This document shows, piece after piece, positions 2,667 to 57,569 of a stretch of DNA of 64,000 bases. Source of the DNA: Azolla caroliniana (lineage: Eukaryota > Plantae > Polypodiophyta); NCBI GenBank assembly GCA_043228905.1, contig JBHGNT010000022.1, forward strand, positions 6,820,001 to 6,884,000. Direction: 5' to 3'. Position 1 is the first letter of the stretch, and each line of letters starts with the position of its first letter. The notes below the pieces were generated by a model that saw only the letters and a program-made list of their open reading frames with translations, was not told where the DNA came from and ran no database searches. Both the position numbers and the translations under genes were made by a program.

Positions 2667-3140
2667 TGTTAGGGATAGTACTAGAAGCAAGGAGAATTAG
2701 TACGAAAGATAGAGGAGAAGAATGAGGATTAGTACTAAGAAGGGAAAGAGTGTATGAGAATCACGAGAGAGTAGAGCGAGAGAGAGAGAGAGAGGTAGAG
2801 AGAGAGAGTAGAGAGTGATAATCATGACAACAAGAAGTATATTATACTATATGAAGAAAGATAGAAGAACAACTAGGAGGCTTAAGACTGGTGTTGAACT
2901 GACTTGGTTCTCAATAATGCCATGTGCCTCTTTTTATAGTATGTTTAGGAGTATTCTTGACCTTTCTAGAATGTTCGAGAGAAATCTAGAATATGTAACA
3001 TGGATTTCCTAGGTGAAATAATAAATGAAAACAATATTTTTCATATTATAATGTATAGCTTAATGGTAGGGCCTCAACCCATGTGACACGAGGTTATGGT
3101 TTTACATCATTTTGAAGCCATACCATGCTATATCATGACA
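2667..3140 (-). repeat. 3' LTR of chromovirus A1 with internal (GA)n tract
   Basis: TGTTAG...ATGACA termini; PPT complement CTACCCCCCTAA immediately inside at 3141-3152. Confidence 0.9.
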
Positions 3141-7085: not shown

Positions 7086-7515
7086 TATTAGGAATAGTAC
7101 TAAAAATGGAGAGGGAATTAGTACTAGAGGTAGAAGAGGATGAGTACTATGAGTACTTAAGAGGAGAAGAAGGTGTGGAACTCACGAGAGAGAGAGAGAG
7201 ATGATGGCAATAGAAGATATATATTATAAGGAGAAAGATACAAGAACAACTAGGAGGCTTAAGACTAGCATTGAACCGAATTGGTTCGAAATAATGTGGT
7301 GTGCCTCGTTTTATCGTGTTGTCAGGAGTACTCTTGAAGTTTCTAAAATGTTTTAGAGAAGTCTTGAATATATATCAATTTTCTATAGTGAAATAATAAA
7401 TGAAAACAATATTCTTCGTATTACAATGTATAGCTTAATGATAGGGCTTCAACCCATGTGACACAAGGTCATGGGTTCAAATCCTTTTAAAGCCATACCA
7501 TGCTATATCATGACA
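7086..7515 (-). repeat. Family A LTR (A2-type copy inside the duplicated block)
   Basis: T(A)TTAGGAATAGTAC...ATGACA; matches 57119-57569. Confidence 0.9.
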
Positions 7516-10928: not shown

Positions 10929-11850
10929 ACTCCATTGCAAATGGTTTTGCTACGACCGAGGCGTATGTGGGCTTCGACCTAGTCCTTGGCATTTGTAACT
11001 CTCATTCCAAATGCCATTCAATAACCCAGTTATCGTATCGTACCACTCGACGGATTGCCTATGTGAGTGATTTTGGTTCTTCAGGGAAAGTCAGGAGTAA
11101 ATCTTTAACATCATTTCGTAGTCTGTATCGAAATTGCTCCATCAATGCTTAATCATCCCAAGGGATATCTATCGTAGGCGAGTAGATGGAAATCTGCAAT
11201 GTATGTGGAGGATGGACGATCACCTTGACGTAATCGTCGGATTTTGTTGATTTTGGTCCTTATGCTATCAATATCTCCAAAACGGGCTTTAAACTCGCTT
11301 ATAAACTCTTCAAAAATATTTAGTAATGGAGATCTTTTTTCTAACAACGGACTGAACCATGCCAAAGTTGAGCTACTCAACAACGTGCCTACAAGACCCA
11401 CTCGTGATGCATCGGTGGGATATCAGGAAGGATGCATTTGAATGACTAATCGTACATGATTAAGGAATCCTCTAAACTATGATCGTGTTCCATAGAATTT
11501 CATAGGAAGGTTGATCTTGGGCTCTTTATGAATCCCTTGAATACGTCGTCCTTGTTGTTGCAATGGTGTAACAATGGTTGCTTCAAGTTGTTGCACGTGT
11601 AACGCTAGCTCCCCATGTTGTTGTTGCAACTCCCCATGTTATTGTTGCACTTGCTGCTTTTCTAAAGGGATTTGTTGAAGATCCCCCACCAACCGTTGAT
11701 TTTCTTGTTCCACTGTGACAAACCTTTCTTTCAAGCCCTACAACTCTGAGAAAACAGATTGGTATTCTTGAGCGCTAATAGTTGCCATAGTATTGGAGGA
11801 AGGAAGGATAGGAAGATTAGTATGAAGGGAAGGAGCGATGTTAAGCTGAA

Positions 11851-12213
11851 TGTCATGAACATCGAGTCGAATTCAAGCCTTAGGTCCTTGTATATATATA
11901 TTTCTCCTAGAAAGACTTTAGACTTTAAACCTTTGTATAAAGACTGGTATGTAAGACTGAATATTTAAGACTTAGTATGTAAGACTTGGCATGCAAGAAT
12001 CAGTATGCTTAATATTATAGTATGTATGACTTGGCATGAGCATGCTTATCATGCATCACTATATGTATAAAAAGGGTTGATCTCCCTTGTTAACATCAAG
12101 GAGATCAACACCAGTCATGGAATAGATATTCATACTCATTGTCATCAACTTATCCATCTCTCTATCTCATCAACTTGCCCATCTCTTTGTCTTCCAATTG
12201 TTCATTCGTGATA
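11851..12213 (+). repeat. 5' LTR of element B
   Basis: TGTCATG...CGTGA(T/C)A; TATA at 12066; AGTATGTAAGACT mini-repeats. Confidence 0.9.
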
Positions 12214-12215
12214 GA

Positions 12216-12226
12216 TTGATCTCCTT
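12216..12226 (+). promoter_or_regulatory. Self-priming type primer-binding site of element B
   Basis: TTGATCTCCTT, 2 nt after the LTR, is complementary to AAGGAGATCAA at 12098-12108, which starts 32 nt after the TATA box start. Confidence 0.8.
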
Positions 12227-12259
12227 CCTTCTTTTTGTCTTCTTTCTCAATACACTATC

Positions 12260-13204
12260 ATGTTAGAATCATCTAGTAACATTGAGCAAATTTTGGCGGT
12301 GTTGCATCAACTCCAACATGAGAATGCAAGCTTACAAAACTCAGTTCAAGAACTTCAGGTAGCAACGACGGTTATACCTCACCCGATTATTGACCCTTCT
12401 GTTGTAGAACCTAATGTTTGCTTGCCAGAAAAATTCAATGGAACAAGGTCGCGATTAAGAGGCTTCATCAACCAAATTTGCCTTATTATTCGTCTTCAAC
12501 CCCGACAATATTCTGATGACTTTCGACAAGTTGGGCTGATCGGCACGTTGCTAACAGGACAAGCACAAGCATGGTTTGCCCCTCTAGTAGAGACTTCTTC
12601 GCCTCTTTTGAATGACTTCCATGCATTTCTTATCGAATTTGAGGCAACTTTTGGGGAGACTGACAAACGACAAGCCGCGCTCAACAAACTATACGCATTA
12701 CAACAAGGAGAACGTGCAACATCAATCTATGCATCTGAGTTTCGTCAGCTCGCATGCGATGTGGAACGGGATGAACAAGCCCTCCTCGATCAATTCCGTC
12801 AAGGATTACGAGGTGATATAAAAAATCCTTTGCTTAACTTTCCTGAGCCCACATCTTTGAATAAGGCTATTTCCCAAGCTGTGCGTTGCGATAACCGTCT
12901 CTTTGACTTTCGGCAAGAGGTATGTCCTCTTCGGATCCATCCACCTTGGCCAACCGCTTCATCTTCATTGTCACCTCCCACCATAGATTCTAGCTCCCCA
13001 ATGGAGATCGATCGAATTCGCTATCGACCACTGACTAACGTGCAACGACAACATCGACGAGCTAACAATTTATGTCTCTATTATGGCGACCCTGGCCATT
13101 TGATCTGTTCTTGCCCAAAAAGGGGACCCCACCGAACACCACATCATGTGGATGGGGTTAACATTTTCTACCAATTGGAAAACTCCAATGTCCAGTTGCA
13201 GTAG
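12260..13204 (+). CDS. gag: Chromovirus Gag (open, 314 aa)
   Basis: LPEKFNGTRSRLRGF, LLTGQAQAWF, LQQGERATSIYASEF, PMEID and a degenerate CCHC knuckle (CLYYGDPGHLICSC). Confidence 0.9.
   Translation: MLESSSNIEQILAVLHQLQHENASLQNSVQELQVATTVIPHPIIDPSVVEPNVCLPEKFNGTRSRLRGFINQICLIIRLQPRQYSDDFRQVGLIGTLLTGQAQAWFAPLVETSSPLLNDFHAFLIEFEATFGETDKRQAALNKLYALQQGERATSIYASEFRQLACDVERDEQALLDQFRQGLRGDIKNPLLNFPEPTSLNKAISQAVRCDNRLFDFRQEVCPLRIHPPWPTASSSLSPPTIDSSSPMEIDRIRYRPLTNVQRQHRRANNLCLYYGDPGHLICSCPKRGPHRTPHHVDGVNIFYQLENSNVQLQ
13177..13183 (+). promoter_or_regulatory. Putative -1 ribosomal frameshift site G GAA AAC
   Basis: In the gag/pol overlap; pol frame is -1 and open from here; downstream stem CAGTTGCA...TGCATCTG. 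Confidence 0.6.
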
Positions 13205-13689
13205 GGGTTGTGCATCTGAACCACAAGAGTCAACAATTGTGTCAAGGGCCCAATCAACCGACTTCTTCGACAACAAGCTTCACTCTTCTGGTCACTCTTC
13301 AGTTTGGCTCCAACACTCTAAAGAAAAAAGCTTTGTTGGATTTTGGGGCTAAATTGTGCTTTATTGACATCATATTTGCACGGACACACAACATTCCAAG
13401 CAACAAAATAATTGTCCCGATTCCAGTTGATGTGATCGATGGTCGAATGCTCTCTTCTGGTGCAATCACAGATACAACAATTCCCTTGAGTCTCCACATA
13501 GGAACCCACCAGGAAGAAATCATTTTTAACCTCATCACATCACCTCGACATCCTATCATCTTGGGGTTATCATGGCTCGAGACTCACAATCCAATCGTGG
13601 ATTGGCGATCTCGCTCCATCAATTTCACCTCGAATTCTCTCCCACAAGGGATTACTTCCACTCTTCTTCGAGCTAATGCTCCGCCATTT

Positions 13690-14040
13690 GTTTGGCCGCC
13701 TACTTCGGTGAGGACCATGTCAACGGTTGCTCCCACTCATGTTTCGGGGACAACTACAGTTTCTACTCCAGTGAGCACTACATCAATGGTTGCTACGACT
13801 CCAGTCTCCGCTCTGGTGAGGACCGTGTCAATGGTTGCTACCTCTCATGTTTTGGGAACAACTCCCGTTTTTGCTCCAATGAGGACCACATCAATGGTTG
13901 CTCCGATTCCCATCTCCGCTCCAGTGAGGACCACGTCAACAGTTGCTCCCACTCATGATTCGAGGGCAACTCCCATCTCTTCTCCAGTGAGGATGACATT
14001 AGTGGTCACTCCCATTTCGTCTTCAACAAGAACCATATCA
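13690..14040 (+). repeat. Coding minisatellite giving a Thr/Pro/Ser/Val-rich linker
   Basis: About 6 degenerate units of GTGAGGACCAC(A/G)TCAA(T/C)GGTTGCT...; peptide PVRTTSMVAPT-like. Confidence 0.8.
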
Positions 14041-17000
14041 ACGATTGCTCCAATAGAAACAACATTGATAGTTCCAACCGCACCGGCCTCGGAAACAGAT
14101 TCCACTCTTGTTCGGGTAAGTGATACAATGTTAATTGCATCCATTTCTAATTCTAAGGACATGGCGGTCATGTCCACTCCAGACACTACCCTATGTAGTA
14201 GCTCTTTTCCATCGAAATACAATGATTTCTTTGATGTATTTGAGAAGAAAAATGTTGATCACTTGCCTGAACATCACCCATACGATTGTCCAATTGACTT
14301 GAAAGATGGTGCTTGTCCTCCTTTCGGCCCTATCTATGGGTTATTTGAACCTGAACTCAAGGCCCTCAAAATATACATTGAAGAGAATCTCGCAAAGTGA
14401 TCCATTGGCCCCTCAAAATCTCCAGCTGGCTCTCCTATTCTATTTGTCAAAAAGAAAGATGGAACTCCACGCTTATGTATCGACTATCACGGGCTCAATC
14501 GAGTCACTGTTCGAAATTGCTATCCACTACCTCTAATCCCCGAGCTCCTCGACCAACTTCGGGCTAGGTGTATATTCTCCAAAATTGATCTCAGAGGTGC
14601 CTACAACTTGGTACGTATCAAGCCTAGAGATGAGTGGAAAACGGAATTTCGAACCGCGTACGGGCATTTTGAATACATGGTAATGGCATTTGTTCTCACA
14701 AATGCTCCTGTTGTTTTTCAACATATGATGAATGACATCTTCCAAGAATAGCTGGACCAATTTGTGGTCATCTATCTCCACGACATACTTATCTTCTCAC
14801 AGGACTACATAGAGCACACCAAGCTCGTCCAACTTATCTTGTCCAAACTTCGGGAACATGGACTTTATGCGAAACCCGAGAAGTGCAAATTTGATCGAAC
14901 CTCAATTGAATTCCTTGGTTACGTCATTTCATCTAATGGTCTCACTATGGATAAGAAGAAAGTCGCAACAGTTCAAGAGTGGGAAGACCCACCAAGGTCA
15001 AGGATGTGCAATCATTTTTGGGTTTTGCCAACTTCTATTGCCTATTCATCCAAGGATTCTCTACACTAGTGCAACCACTTATAGCACTCACTCAGAAGGA
15101 TTCCCCTTTTTGCTGGACTCCAACAACCCAACTAGCATTCGAGACACTAAAGAAAGCTTTTACCTCGGCTCCGGTAATTTTTCATCCAGATCTGATCAAA
15201 CCATTTACAGTCGAAACTGATGCCTCTGACTTCGCCATTGGTGCCATTCTCTCTCAATCAGATAAAAACGGGTTCCTTCAGCCTGTTGCCTTTTTTTCTA
15301 GGAAGTTCACACCCCCCGAGATCAACTACCCAATTTATGACAAAGAACTCTTTGCCATTATTGCCGCCTTTGAAGAATGGCGTCCTTACTTGGCGGGTGC
15401 CCAAAACCGTATCCAGGTGGTGACCGATCACAAGAACCTTGTCTACTTCACCACTACTTGCATTTTGAATGGAAGGCAAGCGCAATGGTCGACCTTCCTA
15501 GCCAATTATGACTTTGAAATTGTTTTTTGTCCTAGTGCCCAACATGGTAAAGCCGATGCGCTATCTCGACGTTCGGATTTCGAAATTCGGCTAGGGGATA
15601 CAACCTACAATCAACAATCACATTGTCTCCTACAGCCACATCAATTTCAACTCTGTGCAACTTATATGGCCGTGGATGAATCATTACTCAATGCCATAGC
15701 CACAAATACTGCCACCGACAAATTTGCACAAGAGATTAGGGAGAATCTTAACAACTCATCCAAGGGCGAGGTACGGAATATTGATAACCAATTTATGTTT
15801 CGGGATGGTTTTCTTTTTCGGTACAACTTAATGTATGTCCCAGATGGTCCTTGTTGTTTCGTATCTTGAAGGAATGCCATGAAGATGCCCTAGCTGGACA
15901 TTTTGGCATTGCAAAAACTTTGGAGTTAATATCTAGAAGTTATTGGTGGCCATAACCTTGGAAACTTGTTAAAGAATTCGTGAAAACATGTGATACATGT
16001 GCCCGCACCAAAGCAGTACATCATCGTCCCTATGGTCTACTTCAACCTTTGCCAAATCCAAATAGGCCATGGGCCTCCATCTCGACGAACTTTATCACTA
16101 ACCTTCCAGACATTGATGTATTCAATTCAGTATTAGTGGTGGTTGATAGATTCACAAAGATGGCACACTTTATTCCATGTTCTAAGGCAATTTCAGGTAT
16201 GGAAACAACAGATCAATTATTAACAAATATTGTGCGCCTTCATGGTTTACCGGATGACATTATCTCTGATTGCGGTCCCCAATTTATGTCTCATTTCTGG
16301 AAACGCCTCTTCCAAACACTTGGAACTTCTACAAAATTTTCGATAGCATTCCATCCTGAGACAGATGGACAAACGGAACGAGTGAATCAGATTCTAGAGC
16401 AATATCTCCGATGTATGATAAGTTATCAACAAGATGATTGGATCAAATTTCTTCCAATGGCCGAGTTCGCCTACAACAATACTCTCCACACATCAACTAA
16501 CATAACACCCTTCTTCGCAAACTATGGGTTCCATCCACGCTTTAACATAGCTATCCCTGTTGGTTCTATGAATCCATCTACTAAAGAACAAGCTCGTCTG
16601 ATGAAAGAAGTGCATCATGACCTATCCCTCGAACTCTCCATTGCTCAAGAACGACACAAAGAGAAGGTTGATCGACATTGGTGGGATGCACCTAGTTTTA
16701 AAGTCGGCGACATGGTCTAGCTATTACGACGGCATATTCTGACTACTCGTCCATGCAACAAACTTGATTACAAAAAATTGGGTCCGTTCCAAATTTTTGA
16801 CAAAGTCAACCTCGTAGCTTTCCATCTTGCTCTTCCATCACACTACCGAATTCACAATGTCTTCCATGCATCTCTTCTTGAGCTCTACCATCCATCCTCA
16901 ATTCCAGGAAGAAGCATCAAGCTGCCACCCCTTGTGGCATTGGCAACCGGGGATGAGTATGAAGTTGAGACCATTCTAGACTCGCGCATAAGCCGACGAA

Positions 17001-17161
17001 ATATCCAGTATTTGGTCTTGTGGAAAGGATATCCCATTTCTGAGGCCACATGGGAGCCTACAAAAAATTTACTCAATGCCCCAGATGTGGTTCATGATTT
17101 TCATCTCCGATATCCTCACAAACCTACACCTTCTTGAAGTCGGCTCTTAAGGGGAGGATAA

Positions 17162-17772
17162 TGTCATGAACATCGAGTCGAATTCATGCCTTAGGTCCTT
17201 GTATATATATATTTCTCCTAGAAAGACTTTAGACTTTAAACCTTTGTATAAAGAGTGATATGTAAGACTGAGTATGTAAGACTTAGTGTGTAAGACTCAG
17301 TATGTAAGACTTGGCATGCAAGAATTAGTATGCTTAATATTATAGTATGTATGACTTGGCATGAGCATGCTTATCATGCATCACTATTGGCATCGAGTCG
17401 AATTCAAGCCTTAGGTCCTTGTATATATATATTTCTCCTAGAAAAACTTTAGACTTTAAACCTTTGTATAAAGAGTGGTATGTAAGACTTAGTATGTAAG
17501 ACTCAGTATGTAAGACTCAATATGTAAGACTCAATATGTAAGACTTGGCATGCAAGAATCAGTATGCTTAATATTATAGTATGTAGGACTTGGCATGAGC
17601 ATGCTTATCATGCATCACTATATGTATAAAAAGGGTTGATCTCCCTTGTTAACATCAAGGAGATCAACACCAGTCATGGAATAGATATTCATACTCATTG
17701 TCATCAACTTATCCATCTCTCTATCTCATCAACTTACCCATCTCTTTGTCTTCCAATTCTTCATCCGTGACA
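17162..17772 (+). repeat. 3' LTR of element B with tandem duplication of U3
   Basis: U3 copy 17162-17387 followed by a restart at CATCGAGTCGAATTC (17391) through to the LTR end. Confidence 0.9.
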
Positions 17773-17794
17773 CTAAAGACAATTTGGCTCAAAT

Positions 17795-18728
17795 TGTCAA
17801 GGATAGTACTAGAGGCAAGGATAATTAGTACTAAAGATAGAGGAGAATAATGAGGATTAGTACTAAGAAGGGAAAGATTGTATGAGAATCACGAGAGAGG
17901 AGAGAGAAAGAGAGAGAAAGAAAGAAAGAAAGAAAGATATATTAACGTCTTCTAAGGCCAAAATTGGCCCATGAGACAAATGGTTTACAAAAAAAAAAGG
18001 GATATTTACCCATTCATCGAAAGTAAAAAATAAAAATAAAAATAGAGTTTTAAGCTAAATAGTTCTAGTAAAATAAAATAACAAACATGTTCTACAATGA
18101 AAATGATGTTATACTATGCCTAATTTCATTTCCATCCAAGTCTCTCGAAGAGAAGCGGGGGATCAAAGGGTTTCGATGTGGATGTGGCCTGTGGTCCCAA
18201 TGTAAAAGGTACCCCAACCATAACTTCTAGTCGACGTAGCTCACGTTCCCTTATCATCTTAATCCTTTCTACTTCGTGTTGACTTGTTTTGAAGCCCAAC
18301 ATCCGTGGGGGTTTGGTTGTTCTTTGCGTTTCGGCTTCCTCAAGAGAGAGGCAAAGCTGGGTAAGTGTATCCACATTCATCGTCTCCCCTTGTTCCTGAA
18401 AATTTATATTATCATGACAACAAGAAGTATATTATATTATATGAAGAAAGATACCAGAACATCTAGGAGGCTTAAGACTCGCATTGAATCGAATTGGTTC
18501 TCAATAATGCCATGTGCCTCTTTTTATAGTGTGCTTAGGAGTATTCTTGATATTTCTAGAATGTTCCAGAGAAATTTAGAATATACATGGATTTCCTAGG
18601 TGAAATAATAAATGAAAACAAATATTCTTTTTATTACAATGTGTAGCTTAATGGAAGGGCTTCAACCCATGTGACACAAGGTAATGTGTTCAAATCCTTT
18701 TGAAGCCATACCATGCTATATCATGACA
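17795..18728 (-). repeat. 5' LTR of chromovirus A1, interrupted in its (GA)n tract
   Basis: TGTCAAGGATAGTAC...ATGACA; matches 2667-3140 apart from the insert at 17906-18409. Confidence 0.88.
17906..18409 (-). mobile_element. 5'-truncated non-LTR retroelement (LINE 3' end or SINE-like) with (CTTT)n tail
   Basis: Absent from the sister LTR; terminal ~45 nt resemble the 3' end of the LINE at 48421-48465; short ORF remnant 18126-18380. Confidence 0.7.
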
Positions 18729-43135: not shown

Positions 43136-43589
43136 TGTTAATAATTAGTAATTAATTAAGTGAGTGTTAATTAGTACCTAATTGTGTGATTAGTTGATAA
43201 GCAGAAGATTAAGTGATATGTGTGTGTATGTGTGTGAGAGGAACAGAGAGAGAGAGAGAGAGAGAGAGATACACTTATGAACAACACAAGATGGGGGATG
43301 AGTAAGTATATTAAATTAGCATTATCATCATCAATTACAAAAATACCCACAATGAGGTATATATACATCTCATGTGCAAAGGTGCACAGGTGTGAGTAGA
43401 ATATAGGTATAACTGTGTAAGTCTTATATTAAATGACCTTGGGAGTGGAGGATCTAGAATATCCTACTTAAGTACAAGGTCTTATTTAAGGCGTTATAGT
43501 CAACACTTCTAACTAGATTCTATCTAGGTAGCTACGAAATTACATGATTGACTAACTAACTAACTCTAGTTGAGCTTGATCTCTCAACA
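43136..43589 (-). repeat. 5' LTR of copia F with (TG)n(AG)n microsatellite
   Basis: TGTTAAT...CTCTCAACA termini; adjacent PBS. Confidence 0.85.
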
Positions 43590-45604: not shown

Positions 45605-48475
45605 AACTGGTATCAAAGCAAGGTTGAAGATGGAAGGAGGTGTGAGCGGCTTCCCAGGCATGATAGTTCTAAACTCTCAGAACTTGTAGACTAGAAGATA
45701 AAGATGGAGGACCTTCTCATAGTCAAAGATCTCTACGAGCCAATCGATAGAGAAAAAATACCCACCGGGGTATTAGAGTTGGAATGGAAATTTCTTAACA
45801 AAAAGGTGGTGGCCACCATCTGACAATGTGTCGATGTTAATGTCCTTCAACATGTGGCGAACAACACAAATGCCTACAAGATGTGGCAAAAACTGTTAGG
45901 CCTATATGAGAGGAAGAACACCCTCAACAAAACATCCTTGATGAGAAAGATTCTGAGACTGTAATACAAGGACGGGGAAAGCATAGTTGAACATGTAAGC
46001 ACATTCATGGGGTATGTGAACCAACTTGCGGCAACCAGGTTTCCCCTTGAAGATGCAATGCAAGCCATCCTATTGTGCACCCTGTCGAACAACTAGGAGA
46101 ATCTGGTGATGACTCTCAGCACCTCGTATCAGGAAGAGAACTTTTCTCTACAAGCAGTAGAGACAAGTATCTTGAACGAGGAGACTAGAACGAAGGACAA
46201 GGGTTTCCAAGCCCAATCAGAGTCAAACTTGACTCAACACACCGGTAGAGGAAGGAACCGACAAAGGAGTCCACCAAGTAGAGAAAAGTCCTACTCTAGA
46301 TCCAAGTCCAGAGGTAAGCTAACATGCTTCTATTATGGAAATCCTGGACACTTTTAGAAGGACTGCCAACACCTCAAGAAGGACAAGGGTTTCGGAAATA
46401 ATGTCGAATCCAGGAAGATTCCTGATGAAAAGGGCACATCGGTTGTAGCTACAAGTATGGAGGAAATCCTATTCATTTGTGAGCAGGCAAACACAAATCT
46501 TGCAAGCGAAGAGTGCACCTGGGTAATCGACTCGGGTGCATCATTCCACATATCTCCATCAAGAGAATGTTTCTCGACTATGTAAAGATGGGAGATCATG
46601 GAGAGTGCAAGATAGCAAGCATTGGAAGTGGGTGCCTGATGATGTCGACTGGTTATCGACTGATGTTGAGGGAACTTCGGCATGTCCCCGATATCAGATA
46701 GAATCTAATATCGATTGGAAGGCTACAATGGTAGCTTCCGAAACGGCAAGTGGTAGTTCTGTTGTGGCAAACTCATAGTGGCATAAACACAGAAAGAAGG
46801 CACTTTGTATATGATGCATGCCTGACTAGAACTAGTGCACACAGATGTGTGCCATGTAGATGCTCCATCGCATTGAGGTGGACAATACTTCATAACGTTT
46901 ATTGATGACTATAGTCGGAAGACGTGCGCCTTTATACTGAAGTCAAAGGATCAAGTACTGTCAATGTTCAAGGAGTTCCAACCAAGAACCGAATGGGAGT
47001 CGGGTCGGAAGTTGAAGGTTGTTGTTGAGCGGACAAGCTCAAACAGATCCGGATCGGCTGAACAAGCTAGAGCCGAACCGGAGTCTGAAATGAAGAACCG
47101 GATCGGTGTCCGGATGGTATCTAGAACCAGGAGCCGGATCGGATTGTAACCAGTAGGCCGTTAGAGGCTAACAAATCCAGCCTAGTACGTAGGCATATTT
47201 TTGGGAGTTAGTGTTAGTCGCTCATATGAGCATTGAAGTACATGTCAGTACTTTCACGAACTTGTATAAAAGTGCTCACTGAGCACATTGTATATGCATA
47301 GTGTTATTTTTTTAATTTAGTTTATGCTTTTTGCTCTCTCTATCTCTCTTGTGTATTCTTTGTTCTTAAGCTTCAATTAAATATTCATTCTCTGTATTTA
47401 TTGTTGTAATCCGGCTAAGCCAGTTTTTCTACAAGCTTCCACACGCTATTCTTTTCACGGTATCCGAGTGCGAGGGTTGAGAACCTCTATTGCCGACAAC
47501 TGCTCGAAATGGACAAACCCTAATCACCAATAAAAGAACAAACCAAAAAGAGAAAGTATGGACAGAAATATGGCGAACTCGCTTCCTACGGAAAATCTTG
47601 ACCGGAGCAACTATGGTATAAAATGCACCAGTACCTGTTGGAACTTGGGGCATGGATACTGGAGCTACATGGAAGGAGCAAATGAAGCAACGCCGGGTTC
47701 GGCACATAAGGACTTCCCGGCATGGGAGCAAGGAGTGAGCAAATTACTTTATTGCCTCACATCTTGTGTGCACGACTAGATGCTCGGGTACATTAGAGAT
47801 GCAAAGTCATTGAAGGAGGCCTGGTAAAATCTTCGAAAGATTTTCGTTGCAAGTACCACTGCTCAGAAGTTGCAGCTCTGGCAAGAGCTCAACAGTGTCT
47901 GTCCATTGGACATGTCGGTCATCGATGACACCACCAAGTTCAAGGAGATCTGCGACGCGCTCGGCTCCATCAACGTGAGGGTGGACGAGGACGAGATGGT
48001 CTAGATCTGCATCGGTGGTCTAGCACAACGGTATGGGCCAATCTGGATGGCAATTTGCACCCGGGAGAAACCATTGTCCTTCTTCGACCTGCAATCGATG
48101 CTAATGGTCGATGAAAACTACGTGAGTGGGTCGAGGACCACTCAATCGGACATCCAGATGTTGTACACGGAGGCGGATCGGCCTCGTGGGTGTAGGGAAC
48201 GAAGTGGGTTGGCACGCAATGGAGGTAGCCGACAAAAGCAGAACCGGAGGCACAAAGATAGTCCCGACAGTAGTTTTGGACCCACCACTAGTAGGTGTCA
48301 GGAATAGTACTAAAGACGGAGAGGGAATTACTACTAGAGGTAGAGGAGGATGAGTACTATGAGTACTTAAGAGGAGAAGATGGTGTGGAACTCACGAGAG
48401 AGAGAGATAGATAGATAGATTATATTATCGTCTTCGAAGATCAAATATGACCTATGAGACCAAAAATATTACATT

Positions 48476-51400
48476 TCACGTGATACGTGTGAAAGTGAGT
48501 AGTGACTCTCGATGTTCAAGAACTTTACCAATGAATGTTGCAATCGAGAGTGCACATTGTGGTTGTGAGAGGAATTCATGCAAAGATTGGGCTCGATCGA
48601 AGAGATGTGGAAAGCATGGTCGAATATGATCAAAGGCAGAGCATTGTATCAAAGTGTGATACTCAGACTCGCGAACTTGTTTAGGGCAAAGTGTGCATAG
48701 CCGACCACTCTCATCACTTGTACCCCAACGCCCTGTTTCACATCGCAATGCATGTGAGCTAAGTCGCATGGAAGCAATGGTTCGAATGGCAGATAACGGT
48801 ATGGGCTCTAACATGTATGGATGTGTACGATTTCCCCGTTCCGCAAAGAATATGGTTTTGTAGTTAGGTGCAACATGTGTAGTATAATGTGTGAAGCGTG
48901 AGCCTCCACATTTGTCCCATGTCATGATACATTGGCGTTGCAAAAATGCCTCATTTACAGAGGAATCTAATGATGCATCATGAAGCAAGTGTCTCGCAGC
49001 CCATCTACCAAACCATTTTTCTATATCTTGCATCCAACCGGAACACAAAATTTTGCTTTTATGCGTCTTTTGGATCTTTTTGCTTGCTTCCCACGCAATT
49101 CTAGGAAGTCGATGTGAGGGACTTTTTTGAACCTTAAGCATGTATTCAACAACCCTTTCCATGGCCATGATCTCAATGGGAAGCGATCCCGTCTCAAGGA
49201 GGAGGAGGGTGTAGGGCGTTTGTTTCTTAACTTGTAGAAACTTGGTAAGAAAATGCTTTTGGACATTTTCAAACTCTTTCCACATAGACTTAGGGATGCT
49301 ACCGCCCCATACTTCCACCCCATAGAGAAGAACTGGTGTCACCAAAGTGTCAAAAAGATATTTCTTGAGGACCCAACACTTAATATCTCCAAGATTGCAT
49401 GTGTTCTCAAATGCATAGTATGCTCGTTTGCCTGCCTCTAAGCGGCGTGTAGCACATTCATTCCATCTATGATTTGAAGGAACTTCAAGGCCAAGATATT
49501 TGAAGCTTTCCACACATTCAAGTGGCTCATTGTTGTACATAATGCATGGTTTATCTCTTTTTTGGCTCTTCACAAGCATAATCTTTGTTTTAGAGCTATT
49601 GACACTTAATTTAGTATGCATGCAAAATTTTTCCAATGCCTTCATAAGCTTTTGTGCATCTCCTAAAGTATTTGCAAAAAGCACTACGTCATCTGCATAT
49701 AGCAAAAGCATAATCACAACATTCCCAATGGCAACTTCTTCAACACATTCTTCCTTTGCAAACTTGGTAACCATTTCTTCCAATTCATCAATGCATAGAC
49801 CAAATAGTGTTGGTGAGAGTGGGCATCCTTGCTTAACACCAATAGTGCTTTTGAAAAAATCTGAAAGTTTATCTTTCATGCGCACACAACATATAACCTT
49901 CTCATAAATTCGGGAAATTGCAAGCATATATTCACTTGGCACCTCAAGTTCTTCCATTCGCCTCCAAAGATGCTCACGAGGTACCATATCAAAAGCTTTC
50001 TTGAAGTCTACAAAGCAACAATATAAACCTTTACCTCTAAGGCGACTTTCCTCCATTAATACTCGAAGGGTGATAAGGTGATCAATGGTGCTATGGTGTT
50101 TCCGAAAGCCAGCTTGTCCATAAGCTCTCTTACCACTTTTTTCAGCCCATACACTTATCTTTGATTCCATTATACATCCAAATAGTTTTGCCATTAATGA
50201 GCCAACCATGATGGTTCGATAATTGTTTACATTATTTATATCTCCACCTTTATGTAAAGGTTTGATCCAATTTGTAGTCCAATCGTACGGCATACCATGT
50301 TGCAATGCATCATTAAACATATCGCTTATCCATATATGTGCTTCCTTTCCCGTCCATTTGAGCATTTCAACCTTTATACATTGAAGATCGCTTGCCTTTC
50401 GAGAGGCCAATTTCTTAAGTCCTATGCATATATCTTCAATTGTAAAGAAGGAAGGCATATGTGAAAGAGAACCATAACACATCATCTTTCCGGCAAGAGA
50501 TAACTCATATAAATTCTTACAATGCATAGACAAGTCGTGAAGAGTTAAGTCACCATAACTCTCAACACGTTTTCCCTTTAGATTTCCCCAAAATTTAGCA
50601 CATGCATGTGCTTTCTCTTGCGTTTGGATAAATTGTTGAGTAACTTCCCATATTCTTCTCTTTCTTTGAATAAGCCTTTTATACTCATGCAAATGCTTTT
50701 GGTAATTCTCTTTATCCTTAACTACATCCAAAACCATAAGGCACTTTCGAGCTTCACGACATTCTTTATCAAACCATTTTTTCCTAAGTTTCTTGGTGCA
50801 TTTCCAAGATGTGCGGTTGGTCGAAAAACATTTGTTTGTACATGAGAGAATGACTTTCTTGAAAGCTTCCCATTTGCATTCTAGTGTGGCACCATGTTGT
50901 ATCTTTGTCATTTGTAACATATCCTCAACCATCTTGGAATACATGGGTGCTCGCTTAAGGTTCATGCTCAAGTGCGGTTGTTTATTATCTTCAATAGCCT
51001 TCTCACAATCAAACCTATGCATACATTTGAGATCAATACATAAAGGCCTATGATCTGATTCCGGTGTCCATTCACCAAGTGAGAATTTATGTATACGATC
51101 CAAAATACCTTCGGAAAGTAGCACATAATCAATCACACTATTTCCGTTGTATTTTCTACATGTAAAACCATTAGTGTTGGGCCATAAGGAAATACCATTT
51201 GCAATAAGCAATCCGGTACTATTGCACATTTGTAGGAGTAGTTTCCCAAATTGGTCCGGATCTTTTTCATCGCTAGAAGAGCGGTTATACATTTGCATAT
51301 CCTCTTGCATCCTTGAGATATGTGGCATGAAAGATTCTTGTGAATCAAGTTGGAAACTTCTTGTACAAGCATTCATGTCACCAAAGACAATAACTTCCCC

Positions 51401-51850
51401 TTTGGATTTGAAATAAGCAATATCATCTTCTAGATTGGCAAACGGTTGATCTTTATCCAAACAAGCATAAAAGTTAGAATCTTGATGAGGAATGTAACAT
51501 CCAACAACAAAAGTGGGCAAATCATTAGGTGTTTCTATTTTGAGCCATATGTAGCATTTATTTTCATCATTTTTTATGATTGACACATATTTCTCTATTT
51601 CCTTCTTAATCAAACATGCCACCCCTCCTTGTCCTCTTCTTTGTCTTGGATTTTTCTTCCATATCAAAGAGTGTACATTATAGTTTCCTAAACCTTGAAT
51701 CCTTTGAGTATCATGCTCCCATGTTTCAACAAGAAGTGTGATATCCGAGTCATTGGTGAACTCCTCTATGCCAAATCCCGCATTCCATGGGTATCCATTG
51801 CAATTCCAAAAGCATAGTCGTAAAAGGCGTGGGTTAGTCTCATAGATCAC
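48476..51850 (-). CDS. LINE ORF2: APE endonuclease, reverse transcriptase, C-terminal CCHC zinc finger (1124 aa)
   Basis: WNCNG, LVETW, GDMNA, IDYVL, SDH (endonuclease); QAGFR, FVDFKKAFD, GVKQGCPLSP, LLYADD (RT); RLSSHALRCETGRW...CTLC...H...C (RTEX-type C-terminus). Confidence 0.95.
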   Translation of the reverse strand: MIYETNPRLLRLCFWNCNGYPWNAGFGIEEFTNDSDITLLVETWEHDTQRIQGLGNYNVHSLIWKKNPRQRRGQGGVACLIKKEIEKYVSIIKNDENKCYIWLKIETPNDLPTFVVGCYIPHQDSNFYACLDKDQPFANLEDDIAYFKSKGEVIVFGDMNACTRSFQLDSQESFMPHISRMQEDMQMYNRSSSDEKDPDQFGKLLLQMCNSTGLLIANGISLWPNTNGFTCRKYNGNSVIDYVLLSEGILDRIHKFSLGEWTPESDHRPLCIDLKCMHRFDCEKAIEDNKQPHLSMNLKRAPMYSKMVEDMLQMTKIQHGATLECKWEAFKKVILSCTNKCFSTNRTSWKCTKKLRKKWFDKECREARKCLMVLDVVKDKENYQKHLHEYKRLIQRKRRIWEVTQQFIQTQEKAHACAKFWGNLKGKRVESYGDLTLHDLSMHCKNLYELSLAGKMMCYGSLSHMPSFFTIEDICIGLKKLASRKASDLQCIKVEMLKWTGKEAHIWISDMFNDALQHGMPYDWTTNWIKPLHKGGDINNVNNYRTIMVGSLMAKLFGCIMESKISVWAEKSGKRAYGQAGFRKHHSTIDHLITLRVLMEESRLRGKGLYCCFVDFKKAFDMVPREHLWRRMEELEVPSEYMLAISRIYEKVICCVRMKDKLSDFFKSTIGVKQGCPLSPTLFGLCIDELEEMVTKFAKEECVEEVAIGNVVIMLLLYADDVVLFANTLGDAQKLMKALEKFCMHTKLSVNSSKTKIMLVKSQKRDKPCIMYNNEPLECVESFKYLGLEVPSNHRWNECATRRLEAGKRAYYAFENTCNLGDIKCWVLKKYLFDTLVTPVLLYGVEVWGGSIPKSMWKEFENVQKHFLTKFLQVKKQTPYTLLLLETGSLPIEIMAMERVVEYMLKVQKSPSHRLPRIAWEASKKIQKTHKSKILCSGWMQDIEKWFGRWAARHLLHDASLDSSVNEAFLQRQCIMTWDKCGGSRFTHYTTHVAPNYKTIFFAERGNRTHPYMLEPIPLSAIRTIASMRLSSHALRCETGRWGTSDESGRLCTLCPKQVRESEYHTLIQCSAFDHIRPCFPHLFDRAQSLHEFLSQPQCALSIATFIGKVLEHRESLLTFTRIT

Positions 51851-51856
51851 GTGTCC

Positions 51857-52726
51857 CTATTTGCCTACATTTCCATCTTTAAGCACATCCTTAACCTTGT
51901 TTTTCAATCTTTCTTCATATGCTTTACGACGAGCATTTTGTTGTGAGATAGTACGATCTTCACTCACAAAGCATTGTGTACCTTTGAGGTATACCCAACT
52001 ATTTTCGAGTATGATCCGCCGCTTTGTATCATCTGTCATTGTGCATACAATAGGCCTTTCTCCGGAGCGAGTAACACCATGTTTCCCAACTCGGTGTGCC
52101 CCATATACATTCACATCTGACATCCCATAATGCATGCTAAAAAATTCACCAATGGCCTTTCCAAGGGATGCGGGTCTTTCCATACTCTCTTCTTTAATCC
52201 CACGGACGACAATGTTCTTTGATCGTCGTTCGCGTTCTTTCAATTCTCGGACATCTATGCTTTCTATATTCTTCTCTTGATGCATCACATGCATATTAGA
52301 TGAGTTTGATAACACATCCCCACCACATACATCGGCCCATGACTTCGTTGTACATACATTTTTCATCTCACTTACATCCCGCCTCATCGTATCCAATTTT
52401 TCTTCTTTTAATGCTTCCTTTAACTCAATCTTGTTAAGGCGCTCATTTGTTTCAAATGATGCTCTTTTACATTCTTGAATCTCTTCTTGAAGTTTTGCAA
52501 CCACTTGTTTAAGACTTTCATTCTCAATGACAACACTTTGGAGCTTAGTATTCTCTTTCATTAACATCCTAATCTCTTCACCTTGCTTGTTTATGGTTTC
52601 TTGAAGAGAAATCAAGTGACTCATAAGCATTTTGTCCATTGCATTAGAATCGAGATTTGTTGGTGATCTCGGCTCATTATCAATCATACCCCCAAACTTT
52701 GCGGCGGTTTTACGAGTATTTGCCAT
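51857..52726 (-). CDS. LINE ORF1 (coiled coil plus RRM-like / Transposase_22-type domain)
   Basis: N-terminal heptads; ERERRSKNIVVRGIKE...AHRVGK...RPIVC...VSEDRT motifs typical of LINE ORF1p. Confidence 0.85.
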   Translation of the reverse strand: MANTRKTAAKFGGMIDNEPRSPTNLDSNAMDKMLMSHLISLQETINKQGEEIRMLMKENTKLQSVVIENESLKQVVAKLQEEIQECKRASFETNERLNKIELKEALKEEKLDTMRRDVSEMKNVCTTKSWADVCGGDVLSNSSNMHVMHQEKNIESIDVRELKERERRSKNIVVRGIKEESMERPASLGKAIGEFFSMHYGMSDVNVYGAHRVGKHGVTRSGERPIVCTMTDDTKRRIILENSWVYLKGTQCFVSEDRTISQQNARRKAYEERLKNKVKDVLKDGNVGK

Positions 52727-52989
52727 TGTACGGACAAACCGTACGGGAAAAGAGAGACAAAGAGGGAAGGAGAGAGAATGTACCTTTCACTCGATTTAGG
52801 GCTTCAAAATCTACCTTCCGTTTGAGGAACCGTGGGGCAAAGATGGCTGCGGATGAAAATGCTCATAACTTCTCGCCACGGTAACGGAATTCAGTAAATG
52901 AACATTCTTTAGAAAGCTCTCTCAAAGAGCTTTCCAACGAGCTATAGAACGTAGAAAACGATGGCCGGAGTGAACTTACAGAGAGCTTT

Positions 52990-53027
<38 letters not shown>

Positions 53028-56000
53028 GGCAATGGAAGATATATATTATATAAGAACAACTAGGAGTCTTAAGACTGGCGTTGAACCGAATTGCTTCGAA
53101 ATAGTGCCTCGTGCCTCTTTTTATTGTGTTGTCAAGAGTACTACTAAAGTTTCTAGAATGTTCCAAAGAAATCTAGAACATATATCAATTTTTTATAGTG
53201 AAATAATAAATGGAAACAAATATTCTTTGTGTTATAATGTATAGTTTAATGGTAGGGCTTTAACCCATGTGACACAAGGTCATGGCTTCAAATCTTCTTA
53301 AAGCCATACAATGCTATATCATGACACTATCCCCCCCCCCCCCCCCCTTAAGATGATGAGTATGATAACCTGGTTTGTCGGGGTATTGTCAATGGAAGTT
53401 CCAAATAAGAGCTCAAGTGTTTGCTACACTCTCGACTGGTTCCCAAGTACACTTGCTTGGACTAAAGCCTAGCCAATCGACCAAATAGTAGAGCTTGTTA
53501 CGAACAATCTTGGAATCAAGGATGGTAGGAACTTCGTACTCCGGTCTTGCTTTAAGCTCGATCGAGGGTGGAGGTGCTGTAATACGATTTGGAATAGTGT
53601 ATATGCCCATATATGTATGTGTCATGGAAATTTTGGACTACTTGAAGGTGACAAGAACCATTAGGAACATACAAGAGTTTCTTAGAGAATAGTAATCCAT
53701 CATGACATTCGAATTGTCGATAGTCCGTACCTCGTTGTTGCGACTATGAACAAGATGCCCGAGAGGGATTAATTTGCGCTAGAATGGCTTGAGCAAAAGT
53801 GTCTATCTTGAAGTCTTCACATATGGTATGGATAATGTGGGAATCCAATGGCGTGTCGAAAACCCACATTACTCGGAGTCGTGTCAGTCCCAGGATTACT
53901 TGCTTATGATTATCGAATGCTGGATCACCGGCACGAGTGTCGTGATAATGCAGCTGCCTTCCCTTACTTCTTCCTAGGACGATATGTAATTTTGAAGTCA
54001 AAACGAGCTTGACGTCAATTTAATACACAAGCATTCTGGAAGTAGGCAAGATTTTTGTGATCACTGAATATAGTGATTTGATGAGAAGATCCCTCTAAAA
54101 ATTGCCTCCATTGTGTAAAAGAGTTCACTATTGCTAATAGCTCCTTGTCATGTATTTCATTGTTTATTTCGGCGGCGTCAAACTTGCACGAGTGCAAATT
54201 CCACCTGGTTGCATCCAAAACTACATTATTCCAATTTTGCATAAAGACAATGTTCTCGAAATCATTTGAGTACTAATAGTACATGAGAATCATGCTCGTC
54301 TTGAGGCTTCGAATAAACTAGTAGATCATCCAAATAGATGATCAAATAGATATCCAAGAGATCTCACAATATATCATTTGCCATGTGCTGGAAGACTATT
54401 GGCACATTGGTGAGACCGAATGGCATAAATGTATACTCAAAGTGCCCATATCGGATGCGAAAAGTGGTCTTCCATTCATCTCCCACTCGGATCCGTATGA
54501 GGTTACATGCTCTTCGTAAGTCGATCTTTGTATAGAACTTTGCACCATTAATCCGTTCTAAAAGACTCGAGATAAGGGGAAGTGCATACATATTCCTGAT
54601 AGTGACCTTATTCAAGCCATAGTAATCCCCGATGAGACGAAGTGATCCATCGTTTTTCTCGACAAAGAAAATGAGTGCGCCGGTGGGAGATTTCGAATGT
54701 CGAATGAACTCGTTTGCCAAATTCTCCTCTATGTAGGCTCGAAGGACTTCTAACTCAGTTGATGACAAGTTGTACATCAGTCCCCATGGTGGCTCTTTTC
54801 TTGGTTGTAAATCAATGGGACAATCATACAGTCGATGATGAGGAAGAGTACTGGCTTGTACCTTATCAAACACGTCAACATAATGACGATACTTCTCTAA
54901 AAGTTGAACTATGGATTCCTCTTTAGTGGTGTTGGAAGGTTTTATTGATACTGCGAAAAGAAACATTGATTCCTTGCGTCCTTCTTCACGCAATTGATGT
55001 AGCAAAATGGTTGAAATTCTATGAGTAGATCCTCGGGTTTGTCGATACCGGATTTCTCTTGTTTTGGAATCTATGCCTGGGTTATGTAATTTGAACCATG
55101 GTAAACCCAAGACAATTGGGTACTCTGGACTACTAATTATATTAAATGATACTACACACACCAAATCAACAAACAGTTGTTACAGAATTGGGCGTAATTC
55201 CTATCCATTAAGCAAGAATTGGCTCCGGAATCTAAGAGTGCTAAGACATGTACTAGAGGGGTACTTTTTGTACTAATTGTTACTTGAGCTAAGAACACAT
55301 TGCTAACTTGTTTAGAGAGAATGGAACTACTAATGGGCTACACAAATCTAGGGCTGTCCAATCAAACGGCTCTTATTTTGGCTAGACGTAGTCATTTAAC
55401 TCTTGTTCTAACTAACTAAGGACTTCAAATTTGTTCAATAGACTTGGGCTACTAGTACTATTAGGACTATCAGAAACTCCTAATGAAATAGTCTCGGGTT
55501 TAGTACAAGCTACTATTTGATTTACCTATCTTCTTGGCCTATGTGGACAGTTTACTGCGATATGCTCTGGTCCTCTACAATAAAGTCATAATCGATTTGC
55601 TCAGCGTCATTGCTTTTCTTCTTCCAACAATGGTCCACGATGACGTGTGGTGTCGCTTTCCATTGGTGTTGGAGTATTTGCCGAAGATACATTGTATGAT
55701 TGCATTACAAATGGTTTTGCTGCAACCAAAGCATATCTGGGCTCCGAACTGTTCCTTGGCATTTGTAACTAATGTTCCGAACGTCATTTGAAAAGTCGGT
55801 TATCACATCGTACCGCTCGACTGATTGCCTTTGTGAGCGATTTTGGTTCTTCAGGGAAAGTCAAGAGTAAGTCTTTGACATCATTTCGTAGGCCATATTG
55901 AAATTGTTCCATCAATGCTTGATCATCCCAGGGGATATCGGAGATGACTAGACAGAAATCTGCAATGTAGGCGGAGGTTGGACGATCATCTTGATGTAAT

Positions 56001-57118: not shown

Positions 57119-57214
57119 TGTTAGGAATAGTACTAAAGATGGAGAGGGAATTAGTACTAGAGGTAGAGGAGGATGAGTACTATGAGTACTCACAAGGAGA
57201 AGATGGTGTGGAAC

Positions 57215-57260
<46 letters not shown>

Positions 57261-57569
57261 GGCAATAGAAGATATATATTATAAGGAGAAAGATACAAGA
57301 ACAACTAGGAGGCTTAAGACTGGCGTTGAACAGAATTGGTTCGAAATAATGCATTGTGCCTCTTTTTATAGAGTTGTCAAGAGTACTCCTAAAGTTTCTA
57401 GAATGTTCTTGCGAAATCTGGAATATACATCAATTTTCTATAGTGAAATAATAATGAAAACAATATTGTTTGTTTTACAATGTATAGCTTAATGATAGGG
57501 CTTCAACTTGTGTGACACAAGGTCATGGGTTCAAATCCTTTTAAAACCATACCATGCTATATCATGACA
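57119..57569 (-). repeat. 5' LTR of chromovirus A2 with (GA)n tract
   Basis: TGTTAGGAATAG...ATGACA; minus-strand TATA at 57370; self-priming-type PBS at ~57105-57116. Confidence 0.9.

Follow-up and report, generated by a model that had tools for sequence, protein, structure and literature searches.

Two families of APE-type LINEs in the genome of Azolla caroliniana, here called family 1 and family 2, insert into (TC)n microsatellites; the targeting is real, strand-specific, leaky and genome-wide. We propose that pairing between the tail of the element RNA and the primer strand, added to a loose endonuclease preference, would set both the acceptance of (TC)n and the orientation of insertion via TPRT. 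As part of the same explanation, hits on the LTRs of a chromovirus, family A, are put down to the long tract in them and come roughly as often as their share of all tracts would predict. We give this reading, as a whole, a probability of about 0.55.

The window, meaning the whole stretch of 64,000 nucleotides that was analysed (C22:6820001-6884000 of a 523-Mb genome), consists of Copia and Gypsy LTR elements nested in one another. It holds five copies of the family A LTR (2667-3140, ~7090-7515, 17792-18728, 48296-53326 and 57119-57569). Each has a (GA)n tract, which on the LTR's own strand reads (TC)n and lies ~20 bases downstream of a TATA-like run. As a first-pass annotation of the window had described, two of the five are split at this tract by minus-strand non-LTR inserts whose tails merge into the target. 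On the element strand the tails are (TCTT)n in insert 1 and (TCTA)n in insert 2, and both run into (TC)n. For insert 1, that annotation gave 17906-18409; the insertion at the tract stands, the 5' junction is corrected here to ~18406, and the body without the tail lies at 17939-18406. The features concerned are the following.

2667..3140, minus strand: empty family A LTR, GA tract interrupted
7090..7515, minus strand: empty family A LTR, (GA)8 at 7186-7201
17792..17893, minus strand: family A (chromovirus) LTR, part 3' of the tract, 92.9% identical to the corresponding stretch of the LTR at 2667
17894..17916, minus strand: target (TC)n tract, interrupted, 3' of insert 1, as read from the sequence
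17917..17938, minus strand: (TCTT)n tail of the family 1 LINE, common to nearly all of 30 position-sampled family-1 ends
17939..18406, minus strand: 5'-truncated family 1 LINE (insert 1), 93-95% identical to longer genomic copies with an APE-RT ORF2 upstream
18407..18728, minus strand: family A LTR, part 5' of the tract, 90.3% identical to the LTR at 2818-3140; junction without TC
48296..48395, minus strand: family A 3' LTR, part 3' of the tract, 93.9% identical to the paired LTR at 57119
48396..48407, minus strand: target (TC)6, 3' side of insert 2
48408..48419, minus strand: (TCTA)n tail of the family 2 LINE
48420..52992, minus strand: full-length family 2 LINE (insert 2), 4573 bases, 99.4-99.65% identical to 12 other full-length copies
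52993..53022, minus strand: target (TC)15, 5' side of insert 2, ~20 bases past the TATA-like run of the LTR
53023..53326, minus strand: family A 3' LTR, part 5' of the tract, 89.0% identical to the paired LTR
53416..53637, minus strand: chromodomain of the family A host element (PF00385, E 8.5e-11)
57119..57569, minus strand: empty family A 5' LTR, (GA)19 at 57219-57256

Domain matches in the host element cover the Ty3 capsid, RNase H and the chromodomain (PF00385, E 8.5e-11; PF19259; PF17917). Therefore family A, with Ty3/Gypsy domains and a C-terminal chromodomain, is a chromovirus, as the annotation had it, and its LTRs have indeed been hit many times. The tract is present in all nine of nine empty family A LTRs and has a median length of 39 nt in 19 empty LTRs. 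Two other parts of the window may be mentioned here. A second Gypsy element (11849-17770), with internally duplicated LTRs, is nested in a family A element, immediately inside the LTR with insert 1, and an empty (AG)12 tract (43245-43268) lies inside another LTR-like repeat.

Inserts 1 and 2 are separate insertion events, in agreement with the earlier description, because their bodies differ and because the family-2 copy is found in only one LTR of its host element, the paired LTR at 57119 being empty. The two can be aligned only over their last ~50 bases (38/50 identical), and family 2 ORF2 has no tblastn match in insert 1. The common 3' end was considered as a sign of a single family and rejected, since the end motif is clade-wide: it has a 4-pair basal stem with 98% of cells paired and a double change at one pair in 6/15 rows, and an upper stem that aligns poorly (67%). 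The idea that insert 1 is a SINE, or another short element of its own, was also ruled out, its relatives continuing into the APE-RT ORF2 of a 4.6-kb LINE; it likely contains the last ~95 codons of the ORF2 frame, the 3' UTR and the terminal hairpin. No TC is left at its 5' junction, the whole tract being on the 3' side, and upstream target bases have been lost at two family A sites (window 18406 and L244). That the two inserts of the window have the same orientation carries little weight alone; the fixed orientation holds genome-wide, and it is the genome-wide counts that carry the case.

The coding frames of family 2 were read from the window copy.

48476..51856, minus strand: family 2 ORF2 frame, 1126 aa, with APE endonuclease (PF03372, E 3.6e-13), RT (PF00078, E 1e-32) and a C-terminal CCHC motif
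51857..52726, minus strand: family 2 ORF1, ATG at 52726, in frame with ORF2, a single TAG between them

ORF1 has 290 codons, with neither a curated Pfam match nor an esterase domain, and the 5' UTR has 266 bases. Of 14 further near-full copies examined, 12 match the window copy at 99.4-99.65% identity, and several have both frames open; the window copy is an intact, young 4.6-kb APE-type LINE. An exact 20-letter word from the family 2 3' end occurs 752 times in the genome (control 0) and an exact word from the 5' end 73 times. Family 1 is likewise a 4.6-kb LINE, with copies 90-95% alike and 884 exact words in the genome. The features of APE-type non-LTR elements are all found: APE and RT in ORF2, 5' truncations, a fixed, tailed 3' end and no LTR. 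The nearest named homologues of the LINE protein come from Adiantum, Taxus and Coleochaete, and matches in the protein atlas and in clusters gave no clade name.

Some side observations concern these elements. There is no in-frame ATG at the start of family 2 ORF2 after the single TAG (window 51820-51859). The bases after the ORF1 stop (51820-51859) can pair with the 3' UTR hairpin region (48420-48480) at -28.7 kcal/mol, a value reached by 1/300 random 40-mers of the element, possibly at the same place. In head-to-tail arrays (L253, L427, L429, L430, L452, L098, L099 and L023), a later LINE copy sits in the TC run that follows the tail of an earlier one, which may belong to its own or to another family.

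Because TC after the tail could derive from the tail itself, targeting was tested at the 5' junction of truncated copies, where the flank is host DNA; a junction was scored as positive when a TC run of at least 10 nt ended within 6 nt of it. The family-2 position sample comprised the exact-word sites of C1, 50 in number, together with the first 6 of C2; 55 of these were resolved. TC was found at the 5' junction of 20/55 copies and of 16/50 truncated ones. Since TC occupies 0.19% of 651,370 background positions, the truncated copies are ~170-fold enriched (p 1e-31). GA, CA, TG and TA were seen at 0/55 family-2 junctions in this sample. Older family-2 copies are often cut by later insertions; therefore, 16/50 understates the bias. 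Among young truncated copies (>=98% identical; position-sampled plus best hits), TC was present at 18/33 and absent from the 5' side in 15/33, some of these having TC on neither side. The 5' ends of all 73 full-length copies have TC within 6 nt in 65 cases and within 45 nt in 71, with GA in none. For family 1 (first 30 sites on C1), TC was found at 5 of 22 resolved 5' junctions and in 11/30 3' flanks, and GA at none of the junctions.

For multicopy targets, one target type in >20% of flanks has been given as the threshold for target specificity, in a passage of PMC4494074; the counts of family 2 (16/50, 18/33, 65/73) and family 1 (5/22) lie above it. The (TC)n targeting put forward in the first-pass annotation, with flank enrichment named as its check, is thus not refuted. 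Target-site duplications were not seen by eye at non-TC sites, and inside tracts they are not measurable. The 5' tracts were not significantly longer than the 3' tracts (p 0.09). Promoter capture was considered as a general rule and is not supported, host LTRs lying in both directions by eye.

Family 3, with a (CTAATT)n tail and 265 exact words in the genome (loci L364-L393 and L256), provides a close comparison. Its reference is a metagenome contig 96% identical to own-genome copies. TC was found at 0/22 of its 5' junctions and in 2/30 3' flanks (p 0.002 against family 2). The RT tree, of 52 rows, was built from 26 hit-list proteins (kept if aligning over >200 residues), 26 loci and family 2. 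Families 2 and 3 fall together (node 100/99) and family 1 stands apart, in keeping with RT identities of 55% between families 2 and 3 and 42% for family 1. Thus, among these three families of the same clade, targeting follows the tail unit and not the tree. The first-pass annotation had envisaged one TC-targeting LINE group; such a group is not supported, for family 3, which does not target, joins family 2 in the tree and leaves family 1 outside. Separately, the family 3 reference contig has 190 bases of 5' UTR in common with family 2 at 89%, which could reflect a 5'-end exchange or a chimeric contig.

Element W was first met at a family A tract (L238), and no copy lies within the window. It is a 5.7-kb LINE of the L1 group with 373 exact words in the genome (loci L394-L401 and L334-L363). 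Its domains are a DUF4283-like ORF1 (below cut-off), APE, RT and zf-RVT; an RT piece scores 80 bits to L1 against 48 to R2, the endonuclease matches L1 at E 1.2e-10, and W occupies a very long separate branch of the RT tree. Its tail is 0-9 A and it reads along the GA strand, with GA of >=10 nt at 20/30 3' ends and 12/23 5' junctions. Thus an L1-group LINE unrelated to families 1 and 2 occupies the tracts that they do, but in the reverse orientation.

How would tract and orientation be chosen? In TPRT, reverse transcription starts from a nick in the strand to which the RNA is complementary. From this chemistry, the nicked strand would be the GA strand for families 1 and 2 and the TC strand for W. 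We propose that GA-strand nicks are used mainly where the end released can pair with a TC-like RNA tail; the tail would then add to site choice beyond the loose nicking preference of the endonuclease. Computed pairing to a (GA)12 strand amounts to -21.0 kcal/mol for (UCUU)4, -9.1 for (UCUA)4 and -4.9 for (CUAAUU)3, values that are indicative, as RNA parameters only were used; the same computation gave no pairing of these three tails to the TC strand. The position of W on the opposite strand in the same tracts is what would be expected if the tail picks the primer strand.

For full-length copies, we propose in addition that the RNA begins inside the TC tract of the donor and that the end of the cDNA then pairs with the tract at the new site, which would close the 5' junction. 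A start in the donor tract is suggested because the 5' ends of full-length family-2 copies have a fixed phase in 52/73, because their TC rate is higher than that of young truncated copies (65/73 vs 18/33, p 0.0002), and because the pairs L414/L425 and L416/L431 have extra 5' letters in common at unrelated loci. There is a parallel in R2, which is co-transcribed with its target (PMC4494074, in part).

Several observations stand against the tail model. In 14/14 distant metagenome relatives whose tail unit is GAAA, GAAAA or ATAGA, no GA/TC tract follows the tail; a GAAA tail fits (GA)n as well as TCTT fits (TC)n, and the hosts of such relatives may have fewer tracts. Also, the family 1 tail pairs best and yet its targeting is not stronger (5/22 vs 16/50), the family-1 copies being older. 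The leakiness of targeting, with 15/33 young truncated copies lacking TC on the 5' side, counts against it too. Moreover, tail and enzyme are confounded in a comparison of three same-clade families, since family 3 ORF2 is ~40% identical and its endonuclease differs too. It is nevertheless tempting to propose, tentatively and at less than even odds, that the 3' RNA repeat acts as a guide. A new tail unit would then retarget an element without a new endonuclease specificity, toggling targeting between sister families; two unrelated clades would have converged on opposite strands of (TC/GA)n; and full-length copies would take from the tract both a start site and a 5' homology arm.

The alternative that survives best, although we consider it unlikely, assigns the choice to the endonuclease: the APE domains of families 1 and 2 would each read the (GA)n strand, and TC-like tails would follow from residence in the tracts. 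That target choice is set mainly by the endonuclease is the position taken for Kibi and other site-specific APE elements in a passage of PMC4494074, and the GAAA-tailed relatives, all 14 outside GA tracts, agree with it. So does the finding that 0/87 family-2 5' junctions lie in (TATC)n or (TTTC)n, which match the tails perfectly but are rare (7 and 9, vs 127 TC tracts). The RT tree, however, would then demand two gains, or one loss in family 3, and the extra TC at full-length 5' ends is not explained by the endonuclease itself.

We find it improbable that the tracts are simply breakable or accessible in general, through DNA structure, promoter chromatin or GAGA-binding proteins, so that any LINE with a pairable tail would accumulate there without a sequence-reading endonuclease. 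Formation of H-DNA and binding of GAGA factor are known for (GA)n in general, the family A tract comes after a TATA-like run, and two unrelated LINE groups occupy opposite strands of the same tracts. However, on this account family 3 should also be enriched, and it is not at all; in addition, TA and CA tracts are never used by family 2, though they are present in the background (54 and 41, vs 127 for TC, as two-strand counts).

The first-pass annotation went further, in seeing the microsatellites of chromovirus LTRs as a safe harbour that the LINEs seek. In its strong form, we regard this as very improbable. A search with the family A LTR, biased to unbroken copies, gave 40 matches, of which 35 were read and the other 5 matched end to end. 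At least 6/40 have family 1 or 2 at the tract and 1 has element W, another has a LINE ~70 bases beyond the tract, and at L253 families 1 and 2 stand in tandem within a single family A tract. The 2/5 of the window exceeds both this 6/40 and the 1/8 of exact-word copies occupied outside the window. Nonetheless, family A accounts for 4/55 position-sampled family-2 sites and 1/30 family-1 sites, against 8/139 empty nearby tracts (p 0.74 for family 2). Among full-length family-2 copies, with the window left out, family A-like sites number 10/72, the share of family A among tracts being 6% (p 0.07 by Fisher's test; p 0.011 by a binomial test that treats the background as fixed), and a mild excess in this class is compatible with these figures. 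Family A thus makes up less than 20% of flanks, and neither 4/55 nor 10/72 places it clearly above its tract share of 8/139; the special link that had been drawn to its LTRs is not borne out.

Grouped by flank, the 87 family-2 sites give nine clusters, at least eight of them other than family A, and a further 38 singletons. Nor are filled sites more embedded in repeats than empty ones: the flank is repeated at 20/32 filled TC sites and 113/139 empty tracts, a comparison of different sides with a background from repeat-rich neighbourhoods, so the safe-harbour proposal is not sustained here either. The targets are mostly in repeats because most tracts are in repeats. Family A is one of many hosts of TC repeats, and its part in the finding is incidental. 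As a separate observation, (TC)n tracts in either direction are present in the LTRs of many unrelated LTR families of this genome (L093, L187, L107, L112 and others).

That the TC runs come from the element or move with it, by tail slippage, assembly error or LTR co-amplification, with no pre-existing target, has a negligible probability: some older family-2 copies do have (TC)n directly as tail, and full-length RNAs seemingly carry 5' TC, but TC lies on the host-DNA 5' side of truncated copies with differing break points, empty sites carry the tract, host repeats and truncation points vary by site (which rules out co-amplification with the LTR), and for truncated family A copies the existence of empty orthologous LTRs refutes it.

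Microsatellite-specific APE LINEs are known in animals, and their mechanism has been called not well understood (PMC3812793, in part). Kibi, a Tx1-clade element of teleost fish, is (TC)n-specific, Koshi uses (TTC)n, and crocodilian Tx1 elements lie in (TTCC)n/(TTTC)n (PMC3812793 and PMC4494074, in part). Families 1 and 2 resemble Kibi as APE-type LINEs whose flanks are (TC)n microsatellites, and differ in having a plant host, a TC-like microsatellite tail and no target duplication outside the tract. The first-pass annotation had drawn the comparison with Kibi and Koshi; kinship is not supported, as neither family 1 nor family 2 is L1/Tx1. Kibi and Koshi are Tx1 elements of the L1 group, whereas the family 2 RT gives 74 bits against human L1 and 77 against R2, its endonuclease having no significant L1 match (best E 1.1); the control, W, scores 80 to L1 and 48 to R2. 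Waldo, Mino (R1 clade) and Dong are also microsatellite-specific (PMC3812793, in part) and share with families 1 and 2 the microsatellite targets and the head-to-tail arrays at one target (here L253, L427 and L429); in contrast, they belong to other clades, have animal hosts and use AC or TAA targets. Among plants, the L1-CS LINEs of Cuscuta europaea target short motifs in the CUS-TR24 satellite (PMC8091179, in part). They are of the L1 lineage, with a satellite and not a microsatellite as target, and are nearer in kind to W than to families 1 and 2.

As to clade, families 1 and 2 look RTEX-like, a likeness that comes from described features shared with other clades and so is not decisive. The C-terminal CCHC pattern of family 2 presumably fits RTEX as well. 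The RTE clade has a rudimentary ORF1 or none, whereas RTEX has a full one (PMC3905857, in part); the 290-codon ORF1 sets family 2 apart from RTE. Green-algal RTEX elements have varied microsatellite tails (PMC3747384, Table 3), so that family 2 shares with RTEX both the full-size ORF1 and the microsatellite tail, and differs in the lack of an esterase domain in ORF1. RTE-X occurs in early land plants, and in Marchantia it is centromere-clustered (10.1101/827881, in part). In the literature searched, we found no microsatellite targeting by RTEX and no TC-targeting RTEX-like or fern LINE, though Repbase, subscription journals and supplements, which lay outside the search, may describe such elements; the available sections of PMC12477816, PMC5786205 and PMC5753468 added nothing on targeting. 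Four relatives on metagenome contigs (L255, L280, L268 and L258) end in tails of the units ATCT, TCATT, TCTT and CAAAT, after which comes a TC run, short in some and long in others; at one copy each, this is a hint that the TC preference extends to related plants.

Microsatellite-specific LINEs have been described mostly from animals, in R1, Tx1 and R4-type lineages. The present genome amounts to a natural experiment, with a young family whose ORFs are intact, targeting and non-targeting relatives that differ in tail, and an unrelated L1 element on the opposite strand. The question of endonuclease versus tail is therefore directly testable by swaps between the elements of this one genome. If the tail steers insertion, it would provide a simple handle for directing RNA-templated gene insertion. 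For plants of this kind, (TC)n markers and TC-rich promoters would be insertion hotspots.
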